From an uncultured virus (IMG/VR IMGVR_UViG_3300044647_000866) (taxonomy: Duplodnaviria > Heunggongvirae > Uroviricota > Caudoviricetes): a stretch of 20,000 bases of DNA. Shown piece after piece: positions 1-5,872 of the stretch. The DNA lies in the IMG/VR virus record IMGVR_UViG_3300044647_000866; one strand, 5' to 3'. Numbering within the stretch: position 1 is the first letter of the stretch; every line of letters starts with the position of its first letter. The notes below the pieces were generated by a model, which saw nothing but the letters and a program-made list of their open reading frames with translations, searched no databases and was not told the origin of the DNA. A program made the position numbers and the translations under genes.

Positions 1-1642
1 AGTGATGAGGGACTTGGCCAGCACGATCCTCGAAGCGCTTGGCGACCACGAGGACGCCGGCACGGGACGAGTCTCTATCATTGCCGCCCAGCAGATTCCC
101 GAACATGTCGCGACCGCCGCCGTACTGGACGTGGTCGTAGGTGCTGGGTGATCGGAAGCCAACCACCTCACACTCAGCGCCAGCCGTCTCTGCGGCCTGA
201 GCGATCGTCCAAGCAAGTTGGGCGGCGTTCTTGGCGTTCTGTCCGGCCATCGAGCCAGACATGTCGACCATGATGGACACCGAAGTCTCGATGCCCTCGC
301 TGACCCAGCGGCGCTTGAAGACCGACTCGCTACCGCTCAGCATGCGCGGCGCACGGCGGCCATCGAACCGGCCACTGACCGACCCGCTGTCCCAGCCGCA
401 ACGCTCAGGAGCCTTGAGGATCTGGTACAGACGCGATTTCAGCGCCGGCAACACCGTCTTCGACAGCGTACGCGCTGCTCGACGCAGTCCGGCATCGTCC
501 TTCTGCATCGATGTCCAGCGGCGCATTTCACTGCGGCCCGGAGGCGGGGCAGACGCCAACGAGATCGGCACCATCGTGCGCTCACGGATACGCTTGAACA
601 CGTCATCGATGTCAGGCTCAGGCGACTTGCACAACTGTTCGTCGTACTGTTCCTGCCTGTCCTCGTACGGCTCATCGCCGCCGTTGTTGGTGACAGCCTC
701 GCCGTCCTCGCCTTCGTCGTCTCCGGACTCGATAGGCATAGGAGCGCTGTCGGCCTCGCCGGCTTCAGTCGTCTCAGACATCTCAGCCTCAGCCTGAGCG
801 AGTTCAGCAGCATCGCTGTCGCCGTCTTCGGAACCGAACGACTCGTCGGAGTCTCCCGACTCAGAGTCGTCGTCTTCCGACTGTTGTGGCTGTTGTGACT
901 GTTGCTGCTCCCACGGCTGCCGGCTGTCGGCACTCTGGTCGACAGGCTCGATGGCCTTCCAGCCTTCGAGGAACTGCATCGCCAGCCCCAGCGCTTGGCC
1001 AGTGCCGTCGCGATCCAGCGACAGGCTTGGCATCGCGTCAGCGACCGCCTTGTACAGGCTGCGCTTCGGCTCCGGGATTCGGTCGAGCAGTTTCTTGGCG
1101 AAACCGTTGCCGTCACCCAGCGCGGCCCGACTGATCAGCGCGAGCGCGAATGGCGCACTGTTGATCGATGTCGGGTTGAACTTGTCATCGAGTTTGGACG
1201 TGAACTGCGACATCAGTCGCTTGAACCCAGACCGCGCACCGTTTGCGCGACCGGACGCAATCACCGCATGCTCGATGCGACCGTCCTCGATTCCGTTCCA
1301 CAGATTCCGCAGCAGAGAATACTCCGGGCCTGAGTACCGGAGTAGGCTGCTTTGGTCGGTGTACGCGACGTGCCCGACCTCGTGGCTGGTGTAGGCCGCG
1401 ATCAGGTCTGCCTCGATGCGCGACACGAACGAGTTGTCGGGCATGCTGGGGTAGTTGATGCGGTAGGTCATCACCCTGCTACGGTCGGAAGTGAGCGCCC
1501 ACTGGGCGAAGGCAATCTCGCCGCCGAAGGTGACAGTGCCGGCCCCTGAGAACACGGCATCGCTGCCCAGCAGCGCTCGCAGTTGCTTCTGCGAGTGGAC
1601 AAGTGCCGCGGCCTTGACGGTCGCCGATTTAATCTTTTGCAT
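1..1642 (-). CDS. CobT-like protein: N-terminal HExxH metallopeptidase-like domain, acidic linker and C-terminal VWA domain (3' end truncated by the window edge)
   Basis: Missing from the ORF track because it has no stop in the window. ATG at 1642 with GAGGAA RBS at 1648-1653. Manual translation gives MQKIKSATVKAAALVHSQKQ...AAYTSHEVGHVAYTD...NLWNGIEDGRIE..., a D/E/S-rich linker, then VSIMVDMSGSMAG (MIDAS DxSxS motif). It directly follows a MoxR-type ATPase, the usual partner. Confidence 0.88.
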   Translation of the reverse strand, partial: MQKIKSATVKAAALVHSQKQLRALLGSDAVFSGAGTVTFGGEIAFAQWALTSDRSRVMTYRINYPSMPDNSFVSRIEADLIAAYTSHEVGHVAYTDQSSLLRYSGPEYSLLRNLWNGIEDGRIEHAVIASGRANGARSGFKRLMSQFTSKLDDKFNPTSINSAPFALALISRAALGDGNGFAKKLLDRIPEPKRSLYKAVADAMPSLSLDRDGTGQALGLAMQFLEGWKAIEPVDQSADSRQPWEQQQSQQPQQSEDDDSESGDSDESFGSEDGDSDAAELAQAEAEMSETTEAGEADSAPMPIESGDDEGEDGEAVTNNGGDEPYEDRQEQYDEQLCKSPEPDIDDVFKRIRERTMVPISLASAPPPGRSEMRRWTSMQKDDAGLRRAARTLSKTVLPALKSRLYQILKAPERCGWDSGSVSGRFDGRRAPRMLSGSESVFKRRWVSEGIETSVSIMVDMSGSMAGQNAKNAAQLAWTIAQAAETAGAECEVVGFRSPSTYDHVQYGGGRDMFGNLLGGNDRDSSRAGVLVVAKRFEDRAGQVPHH

Positions 1643-1651
1643 GACGATTCC

Positions 1652-2869
1652 TCACGCCGCTTCGGGCGCATTTGGGGAGTTGACATCGACCACGTCGGGC
1701 GTGACGACAGGCGGCGCGAGACCAGCCATCGCGGCCTCGATACCAGCGTCCGACATGTTCGCTTTCCATATCTGCTGCAGGACTTCACGCGATTCAGGCG
1801 ATGCTCGATTGACCATCGTCTGCTCGAATGCCAGTCGCGGCGGCACCTTGTCGGCCAGCGCCTCAGCAAGGTAGAACGCCTCGCGCAGCGTCGGGACATG
1901 GTCGAGTTGGCTAGACTGACCAGCCTGCCGCATGACCGACAGCATGCTCACGATCAGCGTCGACAGGTTGCTGTGGACGCCAGTGCGGCTGCTGATGACC
2001 TGCGCTTCGTCCGCCGATTGCAGGTAACTGAACTCGATCGTGCGAGCGAAGCGGTTGACGAACGCGACGTTCATCTCGCGCACCCCGGCGTACATGCCGG
2101 TGTAGTCGCCGCGACCGTTCGAGTTGTCCGCAGCCATGAACACCACGCCCGGAGCCTTGCGAATCACCTCGCCAGTCTCAGGCACCGTGACCACGCCCTC
2201 CGGCTCCAGCGGCGCATGCAGCGCCGACAGGTACTCAGGTCGAGCGAACGACACCTCGTCGAGCAGGATGACTGCACCGGGGCGCACGAAACCGCGCAGG
2301 ATGATGCCGTGCTGGTAGACGGTCGAGCCGTTCTTGACACGCTCGCCGCCGATGAACTCGTAGCGCTCAGCACCGCTGTCGAACGACACGCGGACGAAGG
2401 CGCGACCAAGGCCAGCGCACAGGTTGCGCACGAACTCCGTCTTGCCGGTGCCGGCAGGGCCAGCCAGCCACACGTTGCGGCCACGGGCAACAGCCGTCAC
2501 AGCAGTGAACAGTTGCTCCGCGTTGAACTTGTACAACGGGTCGAGCGCGGGGGCTGCAGGGTCGTTGTAAACATCGACCTCGTACGCACCGTGCTTGCCG
2601 CGGATGCCGAAGACCTCGCGCAGCGACTTGCGAGCGACCACCTCGACGTTGGGCACCTCGACCGCCGCAGAAGGCGTAGGAGCCGCGATCGGTGCGAGGG
2701 AGCCTGAGATCAGGCCCATCGAGGAAATCGCCTCAGCGACCTTCTCCTGCGGCAGAGCGGCCACTTGCTCGATGAAGTCCTGCTTGGACTTGCGAGCGTA
2801 GTCGCCAGCGGAGCCGGACACCCGGCGAACCAACTCGACGAGTTGGGCCTTGGACATTTGGTTGATCAT
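1652..2869 (-). CDS. CobS/MoxR-family AAA+ ATPase
   Basis: Walker A GPAGTGKT, Walker B ILLDE, 'AADNSNGRG...Y.G...MNVAFVNRF' sensor/arginine-finger region typical of CobS-like phage ATPases. Start reassigned to ATG 2869 (MINQMSK), with a GAGG RBS at 2875-2878. Confidence 0.9.
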   Translation of the reverse strand: MINQMSKAQLVELVRRVSGSAGDYARKSKQDFIEQVAALPQEKVAEAISSMGLISGSLAPIAAPTPSAAVEVPNVEVVARKSLREVFGIRGKHGAYEVDVYNDPAAPALDPLYKFNAEQLFTAVTAVARGRNVWLAGPAGTGKTEFVRNLCAGLGRAFVRVSFDSGAERYEFIGGERVKNGSTVYQHGIILRGFVRPGAVILLDEVSFARPEYLSALHAPLEPEGVVTVPETGEVIRKAPGVVFMAADNSNGRGDYTGMYAGVREMNVAFVNRFARTIEFSYLQSADEAQVISSRTGVHSNLSTLIVSMLSVMRQAGQSSQLDHVPTLREAFYLAEALADKVPPRLAFEQTMVNRASPESREVLQQIWKANMSDAGIEAAMAGLAPPVVTPDVVDVNSPNAPEAA

Positions 2870-2898
2870 GGGAGCCTCACAGTTGTTGTTGATTGTCT

Positions 2899-2961
2899 GA
2901 CCATCGTCAGGCAGCGCATCACGCTGCGACAGGGACGCCTCACGGCGAGCCTGTTTCGGTC
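2899..2961 (-). ncRNA. Type II hammerhead ribozyme (HH-B)
   Basis: Minus strand reads GACC-GAAAC-AGG CUC GCC GUGA GGC GUC CCU-GUC^GCAGCG UGAUG CGCUGC-CUGACGA-U-GGUC. It has the CUGANGA and GAAA core, a GUC cleavage triplet (cut between 2928 and 2927) and stems I, II and III, with one extra U after the CUGACGA core. Confidence 0.88.
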
Positions 2962-3140
2962 TATCGGGCCATCTCCTTGATGCCCTTGATCCGGCCATCG
3001 AAGTGGCCGAGTTGGTAGACGTAGGTGATCTGCGATCGAACGCAGGATTCAGACACCACGTAGCCATCTTTCGATGCCTGCTCGATGTACTTGAACAGTC
3101 GCTCGACAATCCGATCGACTTCTTCGTTTTCGTGTTTCAT
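2961..3140 (-). CDS. Hypothetical protein, 59 aa
   Basis: Missing from the ORF track. MKHENEEVDRIVERLFKYIEQASKDGYVVSESCVRSQITYVYQLGHFDGRIKGIKEMAR*. Strong GAGGAGG RBS at about 3148-3154 and an ATGA overlap with the upstream ORF. Confidence 0.8.
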   Translation of the reverse strand: MKHENEEVDRIVERLFKYIEQASKDGYVVSESCVRSQITYVYQLGHFDGRIKGIKEMAR

Positions 3141-3244
3141 TGCGAATCCTCCTCATCCAGCCAACCGAAAGCGATGTATCCGGCCAGTGCGAACACGGCC
3201 AGTGCGAGCGCCATGCGTGGCGCGTAGAACAGGAATGCGTCCAT
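3137..3244 (-). CDS. Small single-pass membrane protein, 35 aa
   Basis: Missing from the ORF track. MDAFLFYAPRMALALAVFALAGYIAFGWLDEEDSQ*. GAGGTG RBS at 3249-3254; the stop overlaps the next start (ATGA). Confidence 0.7.
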   Translation of the reverse strand: MDAFLFYAPRMALALAVFALAGYIAFGWLDEEDSQ

Positions 3245-3252
3245 CGATCACC

Positions 3253-3507
3253 TCACAGGTCGAACAGCGAGACGCTGGTGGAGCGCACTTCCGACACGAC
3301 TTCGGCGAGTTGCTCGTCGGTCAGAATCTTGCGCACCTTGGTCGAATCGATTCGGCTCGAAGCGCGTTCAGAGACGACGGCGCGGAAGACCTCGCCGCGG
3401 TACTCGCCAGCGCCAGAGTCGCGCAGGATTTTCTTGATGGCCTCAGCCTGCTGGTTGAGGGCGGAGATTTGTGCGTTGAGCGCACCCAGTTGGTCGACGA
3501 TCTGCAT
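3253..3507 (-). CDS. Hypothetical phage protein, 84 aa (N-terminal coiled coil)
   Basis: GAGG RBS at 3512-3515, codon usage matching the operon, tight packing with neighbours. Confidence 0.8.
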   Translation of the reverse strand: MQIVDQLGALNAQISALNQQAEAIKKILRDSGAGEYRGEVFRAVVSERASSRIDSTKVRKILTDEQLAEVVSEVRSTSVSLFDL

Positions 3508-3535
3508 ATAGCCTCACAGTTGTGTTGATGTTGTT

Positions 3536-3587
3536 GGTCTCGTCAGTGGCAGCATCACTGCCAGACCGGCTCACGCCGGTTTCGACC
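3536..3587 (-). ncRNA. Type II hammerhead ribozyme (HH-A)
   Basis: Minus strand reads GGUC-GAAAC-CGGC GUGA GCCG-GUC^UGGCAG UGAUG CUGCCA-CUGACGA-GACC. The core is canonical and all three stems are perfect Watson-Crick. Predicted cut between 3564 and 3563. Loop I UGAUG is complementary to the downstream CAUCA (3530-3526). Confidence 0.95.
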
Positions 3588-3589
3588 TG

Positions 3590-3904
3590 TCAGAAGTTGT
3601 AGTCGTAGAACTTGACCGGCTCGTCGGACAGGCCATAGCGCCGCTTCGCGGCATCCTTCCAGCCGTGCTTGCCAAGGCGGATGCGGACAACGCGACCGTC
3701 CGGGTCGCTCTTGATCAGCCACTGCTGGCTGCTCTGGTTGACCACCGTGCCGAAGAAGCCGCCGGGGACAAAGTCAGGCTTCCACGAGGGGTCGCGCTCA
3801 GCCTTCATGGCGCGTATTTCGAGCGTCTTGTCGCTCACGCGCCGCACGATCTCGAAAGGGTTCACGTCGCTGTAGCCGTAGTGGTTGGCGTAGTTCATGT
3901 TCAT
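3590..3904 (-). CDS. Hypothetical phage protein, ~104 aa
   Basis: Protein-like ORF. A GGAG at 3905-3908 directly abuts ATG 3904, so its spacing fits the second ATG (3898) better. First gene after the leftward promoter. Confidence 0.8.
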   Translation of the reverse strand: MNMNYANHYGYSDVNPFEIVRRVSDKTLEIRAMKAERDPSWKPDFVPGGFFGTVVNQSSQQWLIKSDPDGRVVRIRLGKHGWKDAAKRRYGLSDEPVKFYDYNF

Positions 3905-3925
3905 CTCCAGTTGTTGTTAACAGTT

Positions 3926-3970
3926 GTGACTCAGTGCAGCGTCCTAAGCGAGGGCGCTCTACTCAGTCGC
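3926..3970. other. Long imperfect hairpin in the early leader
   Basis: GTGACTCAGTGCAGCGTCCT-aagcg-AGGGCGCTCTACTCAGTCGC: 20-position arms with two C-C mismatches and three G-T pairs as read on the + strand. Confidence 0.7.
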
Positions 3971-3984
3971 GAGATTGATTCTCC

Positions 3985-4156
3985 GGTTCGTTGGGCATCG
4001 TCAGACTTTCGGGCGGCTGCTGTACTTGCAGGTCATTGCCTTCAACCCTACGGCTTCACCGATGCTTTAGGCCGGACTCCGTCTCAGGGAGCCGCCGGGC
4101 TGCTTGCGCTCATCCGGCACCAGAACCTTTGTTTGGGTGGCCCGTCTGGGAGGCCA
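3985..4156 (-). ncRNA. Putative multi-stem structured RNA of unassigned family in the early leader
   Basis: 5' hairpin UGGCCU/GGGCCA, then a domain closed by GGUUC (4127-4123)/GAACC (3989-3985). It contains GCCGG/CCGGC, GGCUCC-CUGAGAC-GGAGUC and GCAUCG/CGAUGC helices. No credible ORF with an RBS. Confidence 0.6.
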
Positions 4157-4165
4157 GTGGTGCGT

Positions 4166-4194
4166 ATCCTGAACAGTTCCACAGTTGTTGTCAA
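4166..4194 (-). promoter_or_regulatory. Sigma70-like early promoter (leftward)
   Basis: Minus strand TTGACA (4194-4189), 17-bp spacer, CAGGAT (4171-4166). Perfect -35, weaker -10. Predicted TSS near 4159. Confidence 0.7.
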
Positions 4195-4254
4195 CACTTG
4201 TTTCTGACAAATGTCGAAATAGGTGATTTCCCCTAGGAAAATAGGAGTTCCGAG

Positions 4255-4449
4255 ATGATGAAGGGCAAAATGCACGGCAAGAAGCACGGTTCGAAGCACG
4301 GGCGCAGCGAGATGCGAGCGCTGAAGCGTGGCGGTGCGAGCAAGGCTGTTGTGGCCGAAGAGGCCGCGGAGTACGGCATGAAGCATGGCGGCATGGTCGG
4401 CAGCGGCTGCGGTGGATACCGCGGCAAGCAGGACTACGGCAAGCGCTGA
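4255..4449 (+). CDS. Small basic (K/G/H-rich) hypothetical protein
   Basis: AGGAG RBS at 4243-4247; first gene of the rightward operon; stop overlaps the next start (TGATG). Confidence 0.75.
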   Translation: MMKGKMHGKKHGSKHGRSEMRALKRGGASKAVVAEEAAEYGMKHGGMVGSGCGGYRGKQDYGKR

Positions 4450-4598
4450 TGCCCGGACTGTACGAGAACATTTGGAAAAAGCGCCGCCGCATCGCCGCAG
4501 GAAGCGGGGAATCGATGCGCAAGCCCGGAACTAAGAGCGCACCCAGCGCTGCAGACTTCCGGAAGGCCTCTAAGACAGCGAAGCGCGGCAAGAAGTGA
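4449..4598 (+). CDS. Small basic hypothetical protein, 49 aa
   Basis: Missing from the ORF track. MPGLYENIWKKRRRIAAGSGESMRKPGTKSAPSAADFRKASKTAKRGKK*. Overlaps both neighbours. Confidence 0.75.
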   Translation: MPGLYENIWKKRRRIAAGSGESMRKPGTKSAPSAADFRKASKTAKRGKK

Positions 4599-5215
4599 GC
4601 GAGGGTGAGGCAGTGAGTCAGACCAAGCGTGAGGAAAAACGCCGCGCCGCAAGGGAGCGGAAGGACGCGATCCAGCAGCAGGAGTTGTCCATCGAGAGGG
4701 AGAGAGAGCAGGCAGCCTTCAAGGCACTGCAGGAGTCCAGACAGAAGGGAATCATGGGGAGACCCAGTTCCTACACAGACGAGAGGGCAGACGAACTCTG
4801 CACATGGATCGCACAGGGGAACAGCCTGCGCAGTTTCTGCAAGATCCACGGGATGGAAGCCCAGACGGTGTACCGGTGGATGCGGGAGCGCCCCGACTTC
4901 CAGCAACGCTACGCCCGCGCACACGAGGATCGTGCCGACAGTCTGGCCGACGAGATGTGCGACATCGCCGACGAGGTGGCCGCCAACGGGGGCAGCATCG
5001 AGGCCGTACAGGCCGCCCGACTGCGGATCGACACCCGCAAGTGGATTGCCGCCAAGTTGCGACCGGGCAGGTGGGGGGAGGTGCAGGCACCCAAGGCGCA
5101 GACCGCCGTCACGTTCAAGATCGGACTGCCCCTCATGGACAGGGGTGGGGGTGGAATCACAATAGACGCTACCCCTGTTGCTGAGGCGCTCCCAGACGGG
5201 GCAGAGGCGGCCTAA
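4595..5215 (+). CDS. terS: Terminase small subunit (Sf6/P22-like)
   Basis: GRPSSYTDERADELCTWIAQGNSLRSFCK HTH, 'TVYRWM...FQQRYARA' and 'ARLRIDTRKWIAAKL.P' match the Sf6-type TerS pattern. The start may be a downstream GTG. Confidence 0.88.
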   Translation: MSEGEAVSQTKREEKRRAARERKDAIQQQELSIEREREQAAFKALQESRQKGIMGRPSSYTDERADELCTWIAQGNSLRSFCKIHGMEAQTVYRWMRERPDFQQRYARAHEDRADSLADEMCDIADEVAANGGSIEAVQAARLRIDTRKWIAAKLRPGRWGEVQAPKAQTAVTFKIGLPLMDRGGGGITIDATPVAEALPDGAEAA

Positions 5216-5569
5216 TAGCGGATCGCGCACTCCTTTAATGGCATGGCAGACCCCCCTCCGGCCTGCCGTCCAGCGGCGGCATCCGGCCCCCGCCAGCGGC
5301 CCATCGAGCGCGACGGGGGGTGGCTTTGGTTCCACCACACATACCTACTCACACGCACTGGTCGACTCCGGTCGTGACCCCCTGCTGGCCACTGAGCTGC
5401 AGGCCGGGGGGCTATGTTGGCCGGCTACAAAATTTTTTTGCGGCTGCCCTTTAGGCGGTCGATGTACCCAATCGGTCACTGGGCACCCTCCTCATCGCCC
5501 AAAGTCAGGTCGCCTCCCCTGACGGTAGTGACGCGGGATGTCGTAACCCGCACTTACTAGGGGGTTCGC

Positions 5570-5872
5570 ATGATTCCGAAAGAGTTCTCGATCATGGGCT
5601 GCACGGTGACTGTCGAGATCCTCAGTGACGAGGAGTGGCAGCACGAGGGGGCGGTCGGGTTGTATGACCCGTCCCGTCACAGCATCAAGCTGTTGAAGTC
5701 AAATCAGCAGATGATGGAACACACGTACTTTCATGAGCTGGTGCATTGCATCCTGCATACGATCGGCAGAACAAAGCTGTCTGATGATGAGGAGCTGGTG
5801 GACATGGTCGCAGGACTGTTACATCAGTCTGTTAAGACAGCTGTGTATCCGAACAACAAAAAGGGCAAATGA
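5570..5872 (+). CDS. Small HExxH zinc-metallopeptidase-like protein
   Basis: 'GLYDPSRHSIKL...HTYFHELVHCIL...EELVD' is a minimal zincin pattern (HExxH plus a downstream E). Confidence 0.75.
   Translation: MIPKEFSIMGCTVTVEILSDEEWQHEGAVGLYDPSRHSIKLLKSNQQMMEHTYFHELVHCILHTIGRTKLSDDEELVDMVAGLLHQSVKTAVYPNNKKGK

Follow-up and report, generated by a model that had tools for sequence, protein, structure and literature searches.

Two predicted type II hammerhead ribozymes between the genes of a leftward operon in an uncultured tailed phage

Introduction

Two predicted type II hammerhead ribozymes, here called HH-A and HH-B, lie on the minus strand of a 20,000-nt stretch of DNA from an uncultured tailed phage (IMG/VR record IMGVR_UViG_3300044647_000866; the whole stretch is hereafter the window) and flank a block of three small genes. 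The closest described systems are the hammerhead clusters of prophages, in which a single gene or a short block of genes, variable in identity, is often flanked by several hammerheads, as seen around ardA in Agrobacterium tumefaciens and in Clostridium scindens and Azorhizobium caulinodans (Perreault et al. 2011, PMC3088659). Cleavage in vitro was shown for three such arrays, and the A. tumefaciens array also cleaves in E. coli. The likely role proposed there is to split long phage transcripts into mRNAs of operon or gene length; the authors also considered spliced or circular products and did not detect any (PMC3088659). Three type II hammerheads of Desulfovibrio vulgaris were found by cyPhyRNA-seq to cleave in vivo, leaving 5'-OH and 2',3'-cyclic phosphate ends (Olzog et al. 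2021, PMC8782182). A 2019 review describes the roles of bacterial hammerheads as largely elusive and repeats the polycistron-processing idea (PMC6765202), and our literature search on phage operon processing by hammerheads returned nothing newer on mechanism.

The arrangement in the window is of the clustered kind, with two hammerheads on one strand, 636 nt apart and phage genes all around. As in the clusters of Perreault et al., same-strand hammerheads (type II included) sit between genes of a phage operon, and the enclosed genes are variable. The differences are that the phage is another, uncultured one, that the neighbouring genes encode small uncharacterised proteins and a cobS/cobT-like pair, and that self-cleavage is a prediction for this locus. 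The D. vulgaris hammerheads are likewise of type II and located near hypothetical and phage-like genes (PMC8782182), but they occupy three separate genome locations in a different organism, whereas the pair in the window brackets a gene block. The clustered layout has been known in phages since 2011, and the locus does not represent a new kind of system. Its useful particulars are a subfamily that scores below the Rfam threshold, the lack of a recognisable pseudoknot, a strict geometry from stop codon to start codon, and an operon that occurs naturally with anything from 0 to 3 intact ribozymes.

In viroids, retrozymes and the engineered twister-based 'Tornado' system, two flanking self-cleaving ribozymes free a unit whose 5'-OH and 2',3'-cyclic phosphate ends can be joined by a tRNA ligase or RtcB. 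These circles are documented, and the flanking ribozymes are identical repeats or, alternatively, engineered stems hold the ends. The window departs from this design, as its two ribozymes differ, their chimeric stem II pairs at 2/4 positions and the phage encodes no RtcB. In RiboJ-type insulators, a hammerhead placed before the ribosome-binding site removes the upstream context and leaves a 5' hairpin and a defined leader. These insulators are engineered from a type III satellite-RNA hammerhead and stand behind promoters, whereas the hammerheads of the window sit between cistrons.

Results

Two predicted type II hammerheads flank a three-gene block

We favour, with a probability of roughly 0.7, the reading that HH-A and HH-B are active, constitutive type II hammerheads that would cleave in vivo and serve as intercistronic punctuation of a leftward phage operon. 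This operon of non-structural genes runs on the minus strand from about position 3904 to beyond the left end of the window, in the order p104, p84, p35, p59, cobS-like and cobT-like. The ribozymes and the leaders that follow them are:

3536..3587, minus strand: HH-A, type II hammerhead, predicted cut after C3564 (3564/3563)
HH-A, first half: stem II 5' strand GGUC 3587-3584; GAAA 3583-3580; stem III CCGGC-GUGA-GCCGG; U16.1 3565; C17 3564
HH-A, second half: stem I hairpin UGGCAG-UGAUG-CUGCCA 3563-3547; core CUGACGA 3546-3540; stem II 3' strand GACC 3539-3536
2899..2961, minus strand: HH-B, type II hammerhead, predicted cut after C2928 (2928/2927)
HH-B, first half: stem II 5' strand GACC 2961-2958; GAAA 2957-2954; stem III (CAGG...CCUG, then U) 2954-2929; C17 2928
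HH-B, second half: stem I GCAGCG-UGAUG-CGCUGC 2927-2911; core CUGACGA 2910-2904; extra U 2903; stem II 3' strand GGUC 2902-2899
3508..3535, minus strand: HH-A leader, C/A-rich AACAACAUCAACACAACU and a GAGG Shine-Dalgarno site before the p84 start
2870..2898, minus strand: HH-B leader, C/A-rich AGACAAUCAACAACAACU and a GAGG Shine-Dalgarno site before the cobS-like start codon 2869-2867

Direct reading of the minus strand bore out the first-pass annotation of the window, which had proposed two same-strand type II hammerheads cutting at 3564/3563 and 2928/2927. The order IIb-GAAA-III-C17-I-CUGANGA-IIa is that of the type II permutation, in which stem II is open and stems I and III are closed. The core is intact in both copies, with CUGANGA (read as CUGACGA), GAAA, A15.1-U16.1 and C17. 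Stem III of HH-B is extended by an additional 4-bp/GUGA element. In HH-A, G10.1-C11.1 lies directly beside A9 and G12; in HH-B, one extra U (2903) separates A9 from G10.1. This U is a natural polymorphism, as it is absent from the related viral loci L004, L005, L008, L010 and L084, and the CChMVd hammerhead became faster with an extra U at the same place (PMC3705267).

The 636-nt product between the cuts does carry the three open reading frames (ORFs) that had been assigned to it (3253-3507, 3137-3244 and 2961-3140). The cuts fall 26 nt (HH-A) and 33 nt (HH-B) past intact stop codons and would therefore create no non-stop messages. After cleavage, the 5' untranslated region (UTR) would measure 56 nt for p84, with 3508..3535 as its single-stranded part, and 58 nt for the cobS-like gene.

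Chance expectation, folding and Rfam scores

A motif descriptor, written after both hammerheads had been seen, matched only HH-A and HH-B in the whole 55,602-bp record; 200 dinucleotide-preserving shuffles of the record gave 10 matches altogether, that is, about 0.05 per genome by chance. Folded alone, both sequences form the three-way junction as minimum free energy (MFE) and centroid structure (HH-A, -24.0 kcal/mol, z -3.75; HH-B, -29.4 kcal/mol, z -3.07). The Rfam family RF02276 (Hammerhead_II) matches both end to end over model positions 1-66, with 26.7 bits (E 0.11) for HH-A and 20.6 bits (E 4.4) for HH-B. The search of the genome with this model returned HH-B and not HH-A, a filter effect. 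The two hammerheads share with RF02276 the catalytic core and the circular permutation, but stem II has 4 bp (GGUC/GACC) against 2 bp in the model, the pseudoknot is unsupported and HH-B carries the extra U after A9. With our own covariance model R1, built from eight variants, the scores rose to 80 bits for HH-A and 73.2 bits for HH-B. No other ribozyme class was found with Rfam at E<=10 in the window and at E<=1 in the rest of the genome, which returned the two hammerheads only. HH-A and HH-B thus look like bona fide type II hammerheads, and self-cleavage is predicted.

It could be argued that they are inactive look-alikes or decayed relics that act, at most, as intercistronic hairpins. The sub-threshold Rfam scores, the extra U of HH-B, the lack of a pseudoknot and the existence of relics elsewhere in the hammerhead family would fit such a view. 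We nevertheless regard it as extremely improbable, given that every catalytic-core position is canonical in HH-A and HH-B, that all three stems covary (see below), that the chance expectation is so low and that a hammerhead with an extra U at the HH-B position, that of CChMVd, is active (PMC3705267).

A covarying family in related viral contigs

A search with R1 of 64 viral loci linked to p104 detected hammerheads in 13, amounting to 23 matches in addition to the two of the window; at E<=1, R1 gave nothing beyond these hammerheads over the 64 loci. L084, with three intact hammerheads and a half-relic, was reached via the cobS-like protein. Scanning viral contigs with a 17-nt motif yielded 43 loci, and R1 gave 30 matches in the 32 that were searched, namely those not repeating contigs already examined (L102, an L084 contig, was retained). 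The family comprises 27 distinct hammerhead sequences, all of which keep the core.

In alignment A2, 97.5% of the cells are paired, as opposed to 24-44% when the partners are slid, and both-sided (compensatory) changes affect 11/16 base pairs, spread over all three helices; these figures come from matches that were chosen and aligned by structure-aware methods, which biases them towards structure. Despite this selection bias, the combination of an invariant core with stems that vary freely and compensate is the pattern expected of a working ribozyme. Some elements hardly vary: stem II is almost always GGUC/GACC and, with the AACAAC tail, is nearly invariant across unrelated contigs, and a G-C pair and a U-NNN-G loop are retained at the top of stem I.

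The position of the family members between genes is equally regular. An ORF starts 41-63 nt beyond the cut in 27/27 members, and in 22/27 the first base of the hammerhead falls between -4 and +1 nt relative to the end of the upstream stop codon (frames of at least 30 codons). Stem II is followed by a C/A-rich spacer, usually with AACAAC at its start, then by a Shine-Dalgarno site and the start codon. The leader layout of 3508..3535 recurs in all 27 distinct members.

Contact or overlap between the stop codon and stem II, seen in 22/27 members, also invites the idea of regulated cleavage. A terminating ribosome would cover stem II and part of stem III, and the cleavage rate and the ratio of the mRNAs would then depend on upstream translation, Mg2+ or conditions. 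With no recognisable tertiary stabiliser, and with the extra core-adjacent U in HH-B, rates may be sub-maximal and tunable, and regulated cleavage has been raised for phage hammerheads by Perreault et al. (PMC3088659). Compact genomes, however, place intergenic elements beside stop codons anyway, and these are minimal three-way junctions with no ligand-binding or switch element, for which the MFE structure in isolation is the active fold. We therefore consider regulation of this kind unlikely.

A pseudoknot between loop I and the 3' tail, the nucleotides that directly follow stem II, is a typical though not universal tertiary stabiliser of type II hammerheads (PMC3088659). It was also considered, as 5 pairs (HH-A) and 4 pairs (HH-B) could form in the window. 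It was rejected as a family feature: in the 27 members, loops and their own tails form 3.00 pairs on average, no better than the 3.13 of mismatched tails.

HH-B stays with the cobS-like gene, HH-A does not keep its place

A hammerhead ends 25-29 nt before the cobS-like start in 12/12 p104-linked loci whose cobS-like gene shows at least 78% identity. In L084 (88% identical), the hammerhead ends 21 nt before this start. The position of HH-A is less stable: it is found downstream of p104 in 9 loci and upstream in L010 and L011, and it is absent from L009 and L022. Relatives carry 1-3 intact hammerheads (L084 having three and the half-relic) with differing enclosed genes. In these close relatives HH-B always stays before the cobS-like gene as HH-A moves or is lost. 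The bracket itself is not conserved, and the retention of HH-B is the strongest comparative hint on function.

In close relatives, namely L011:2921-3306 and contigs of the sequencing runs X1 and X5 (on window positions 3505-3904), the HH-A module precedes p104 and not p84. Its leader is identical up to the ATG whether it stands before p84, as in the window, or before p104, and the p104-p84 gap is just 14 nt where the module precedes p104. At the DNA level, the hammerhead and its leader behave as a movable intergenic cassette.

The leader of p104 itself bears on the history of such cassettes:

3905..3960, minus strand: p104 leader, C/A-rich CAACUGUUAACAACAACUGGAG, of the same type as the leaders after intact hammerheads in relatives

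A 17-nt C/A-rich stretch of this leader, CAACTGTTAACAACAAC, also follows an intact hammerhead in L010:617-705 and a half-hammerhead in L084:1283-1372. Aligned with L010 and L084, the sequence upstream of the p104 leader resembles a decayed hammerhead 3' half, made up of the 3' strand of stem I and the core. R1 gave no match at 3905-3960, which is not a ribozyme in the window. The p104 leader therefore suggests a lost third hammerhead, whose leader would have outlived the ribozyme.

The half-hammerhead of L084 (1296-1342; R1, 22.5 bits) retains stem I, CUGAUGA, GACC and the AACAAC leader and lacks GAAA and stem III. It is located at the 3' end of a 103-amino-acid (aa) ORF, before the next small gene and between intact hammerheads.

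One may ask whether the cassette is chiefly a portable or selfish module, in which the hammerhead, the C/A-rich leader and the Shine-Dalgarno site promote recombination and cassette shuffling between phages and cleavage brings little benefit. The same unit does occur before p84 in the window and before p104 in L011 and the X1 and X5 contigs, the genes between hammerheads vary among relatives, L084 has a half-hammerhead relic with an intact leader and the window probably has another ahead of p104, and stem II and the AACAAC tail are nearly invariant in unrelated contigs. We find it quite improbable as the full account. In 27 distinct copies the core is kept and compensatory changes maintain all three helices, which indicates selection on the ribozyme fold itself. 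It should also be noted that a portable module and transcript processing are not mutually exclusive.

Probable processing of the operon transcript into linear mRNAs

The most likely outcome of cleavage is that one polycistronic mRNA would be cut into three linear mRNAs with hairpins at the new ends. Such a linear reading had been put forward in the first-pass annotation beside a circular one, and it fits all of the comparative evidence and the literature. We infer cleavage in vivo, and with it effects on stability and translation, from the motifs, their conservation, the covariation and the fixed stop-to-start position.

In the proposed sequence of events, each ribozyme would fold during transcription, with local hairpins I and III forming and the 4-bp stem II closing the junction. 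It would then cut itself after C17, the weak stem II would fall apart, and three linear mRNAs would be freed, carrying p104, p84-p35-p59 and the cobS-like and cobT-like genes. The upstream piece would end with an intact stop codon followed by the stem III hairpin bearing the 2',3'-cyclic phosphate. In the downstream piece, the stem I hairpin would carry the 5'-OH at its very end, and the unstructured C/A-rich leader, the Shine-Dalgarno site and the start codon would come next. It is the type II topology that would leave closed hairpins on both new ends. For the 636-nt piece, the predicted ensemble gives both terminal hairpins a pair probability of about 0.9 and leaves the C/A spacer mostly unpaired.

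The likely benefit would be a defined, context-independent 5' UTR and, for every piece, a stability of its own, most importantly for the one with the cobS/cobT-like pair. In line with the general principles of bacterial mRNA decay, hairpin ends may protect from 5'-end-dependent and 3'-exonucleolytic decay, and the leader may standardise translation.

Several observations weigh against this reading. Hammerheads were found in 0/12 loci with a 66-70% identical cobS-like gene and an intact 5' flank, and 51/64 p104 loci carry related genes without hammerheads; the ribozymes are hence dispensable, because more distant relatives have the same genes without them. For 20 of these 51 loci, Rfam at the gathering threshold likewise reported no ribozyme, a weak scan, as HH-A and HH-B themselves fall below that threshold. 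Indeed, both score under the 37 bits required for RF02276 and so go unreported by Rfam at gathering. When 40-nt flanks are included, the MFE structure swaps stem II for other pairings. As the pseudoknot is unsupported among the 27 members, fast cleavage at physiological Mg2+ would need another tertiary contact. The structure-aware choice of the aligned matches, mentioned above, belongs here as well. Finally, contigs from RNA libraries bridge the HH-B cut site, and their source may be DNA or uncleaved RNA.

These contigs came from public RNA libraries, of which 20 runs contained 14-16% of the sampled words of positions 2600-3950. Four of the 23 listed runs (X1, X4, X5 and X2) were aligned as Logan contigs, which derive from relatives mostly 90-99% alike. 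No contig of the four runs ended at either cut site, and such contigs can show neither the ends of an RNA nor rare forms. Two joints, 3515>3589 and 3895>3505, were observed, and they correspond to the DNA-type gene-order variant with the HH-A module upstream of p104. A 24-nt family-motif scan of metagenome contigs gave 6 loci, none ending at a cut site, which is uninformative.

The locus offers a clean natural series for testing the role of phage hammerheads, with the operon available in forms that have two hammerheads, one, three and a relic, or none. Further assets of this series are the extra-U polymorphism beside the core and the strict geometry of stop codon, ribozyme, C/A-rich leader, Shine-Dalgarno site and start codon. 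The locus also shows that standard Rfam annotation at the gathering threshold misses the GGUC/GACC-AACAAC subfamily.

An unlikely circular form of the 636-nt piece

The first-pass annotation had also raised a circular mRNA, in which a host RtcB-type ligase would join the 5'-OH and the 2',3'-cyclic phosphate of the 636-nt piece and a mismatched chimeric stem II would block re-cutting. We consider this very unlikely. The swap of the stem II strands on which the idea was built is exactly as described (GGUC...GACC in HH-A, GACC...GGUC in HH-B), and the chimeric stem II of the two would pair at 2/4 positions only. The swap amounts to two covarying base pairs in a near-palindromic helix. In 10 distinct neighbouring same-strand pairs of the family, the chimeric stem II would form 4/4 positions in 4 pairs, 3/4 in 2 and 2/4 in 4, and all four of the 2/4 neighbours share the same cobS-linked HH-B. 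A check of related phages for paired ribozymes with non-interchangeable stem II, as had been suggested, thus showed that this is not general: 4/10 neighbouring pairs are fully interchangeable, so non-interchangeability is not a family feature. A design against re-cleavage is not supported, and ordinary covariation accounts for the swap.

The end chemistry of hammerhead products is established to suit RtcB (PMC8782182), and the ends of the 636-nt piece show some affinity for each other. The 28x28-nt terminal duplex reaches -25.7 kcal/mol as compared with -16.1 +/- 3.4 for shuffles (0.9% as good), a property noticed post hoc; also post hoc, the terminal complementarity is in the best 1.5% of 729 family-member combinations. 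The MFE structure of the product has 21 end-to-end pairs. In a closed panhandle of this type, stem I of HH-A and the extended stem III of HH-B would refold into the 21-pair end-to-end helix, which would set the 5'-OH beside the 2',3'-cyclic phosphate for host RtcB. Circle or panhandle, such a form is highly improbable. The end-to-end helix has a probability of about 0.08 in the ensemble, against about 0.9 for both terminal hairpins, and forcing both hairpins costs just 0.3 kcal/mol. Without a chimeric stem II, no viroid- or retrozyme-like hammerhead fold would bring the ends together. HH-A is moved or absent in close relatives, in which HH-B stays with the cobS-like gene, and the phage encodes no RtcB.

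Perreault et al. sought circular or spliced products of such arrays and detected none (PMC3088659). A full-text literature search (hammerhead, phage, circular RNA, RtcB) likewise found no natural phage circle reported by title or abstract. No joint from 2928 to 3563 occurred in the X1, X4, X5 and X2 contigs, which, being contigs of relatives, cannot decide the question. A circle would make an exonuclease-proof phage mRNA, shielded from re-cleavage by the mismatched stem II, and the first natural ribozyme-made circular phage mRNA; the evidence here points the other way, towards linear processing.

The phage and the genes of the leftward operon

The window corresponds to positions 17485-37484 of the 55,602-bp IMG/VR record, which CheckV rates as complete. 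The plus-strand genes encode small and large terminase subunits, an SU10-type portal, adaptors, a capsid protein and a lysozyme; the phage also encodes a 2,477-aa polyvalent protein, a DnaB-like helicase and the cobS/cobT-like AAA+/vWA pair. DNA similarity to named phages is confined to short 68-80% matches to Pseudomonas phages and uncultured viruses. The lineage of this phage occurs in freshwater and river samples. The genes of the leftward operon are:

3590..3904, minus strand: p104, 104-aa ORF; phrog_19789, E 5e-8; relatives in 64 viral loci
3253..3507, minus strand: p84, 84-aa ORF, first gene of the bracketed block
3137..3244, minus strand: p35, ORF for a 35-aa hydrophobic peptide
2961..3140, minus strand: p59, 59-aa ORF; TAG stop 2963-2961
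1652..2869, minus strand: CobS-like AAA+ ATPase, 405 aa from ATG 2869; phrog_249, E 1e-48; Pfam AAA_5, E 4e-15
2..1642, minus strand: CobT-like vWA protein; phrog_1576, phrog_5298 and phrog_17276; Pfam CobT_C; runs off the left end of the window

Genes and ribozymes are tightly packed. The stop codon of p104 (3592-3590) is 2 nt ahead of HH-A, the p35 stop overlaps the p59 start (ATGA), and the G of the p59 TAG stop is the first base of stem II of HH-B. Profile searches with p104, p84, p35 and p59 gave no Pfam family and no annotated PHROG family, and the protein-atlas neighbours in the p104 and p84 searches are phage hypothetical proteins. Relatives of p84 show 74-100% identity in 12 loci and 33-37% in 5 more distant ones; those of p59 show 90-100% and 35-39%. 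The p35 peptide is 97-100% identical in 7 close loci, and L084 has a similar 35-aa hydrophobic ORF at the same place. Over the full record, the CobT-like protein is 659 aa long.

The longest ORF call for the cobS-like gene (1652-3109, minus strand; TTG start, 485 aa) spans HH-B and p59. The relatives and the Shine-Dalgarno site point to ATG 2869 (2869-2867) as the true start; relatives of the protein align from residue 1 of the ATG-2869 product. Automatic annotation could bury HH-B within a coding sequence through the TTG-start call.

A promoter and terminator scan of positions 1-5700 gave zero terminator-like sites and one weak promoter-like site, on the plus strand. Between the divergent operons, about 300 nt (3961-4254, minus strand) have no convincing ORF and no Rfam match. 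The leftward operon may have a long structured 5' leader in the G+C-rich stretch within this region, and a TTGACA at about 4193-4188 (minus strand), spotted by eye only, lies in the same region. Beyond it, at 4255-4449 on the plus strand, an unannotated ORF of 64 aa, in which Lys, Gly and His are abundant and which has a good AGGAG ribosome-binding site, is located upstream of the small terminase gene.

Two observations concern sequences outside the window. The 2,477-aa polyvalent protein (G000:C1:61-7494, plus strand) contains ART-PolyVal (ADP-ribosyltransferase) and LPD38 domains. Rfam RF02932, 'Betaproteobacteria-1 RNA', matches G000:C1:11696-11813 (plus strand; L067) with 90.2 bits against a gathering score of 49.4 bits, and a second match is found in a relative (L039:2287-2407, minus strand; 78.8 bits). 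RF02932 is an orphan structured RNA, and its presence may hint at a betaproteobacterial host.

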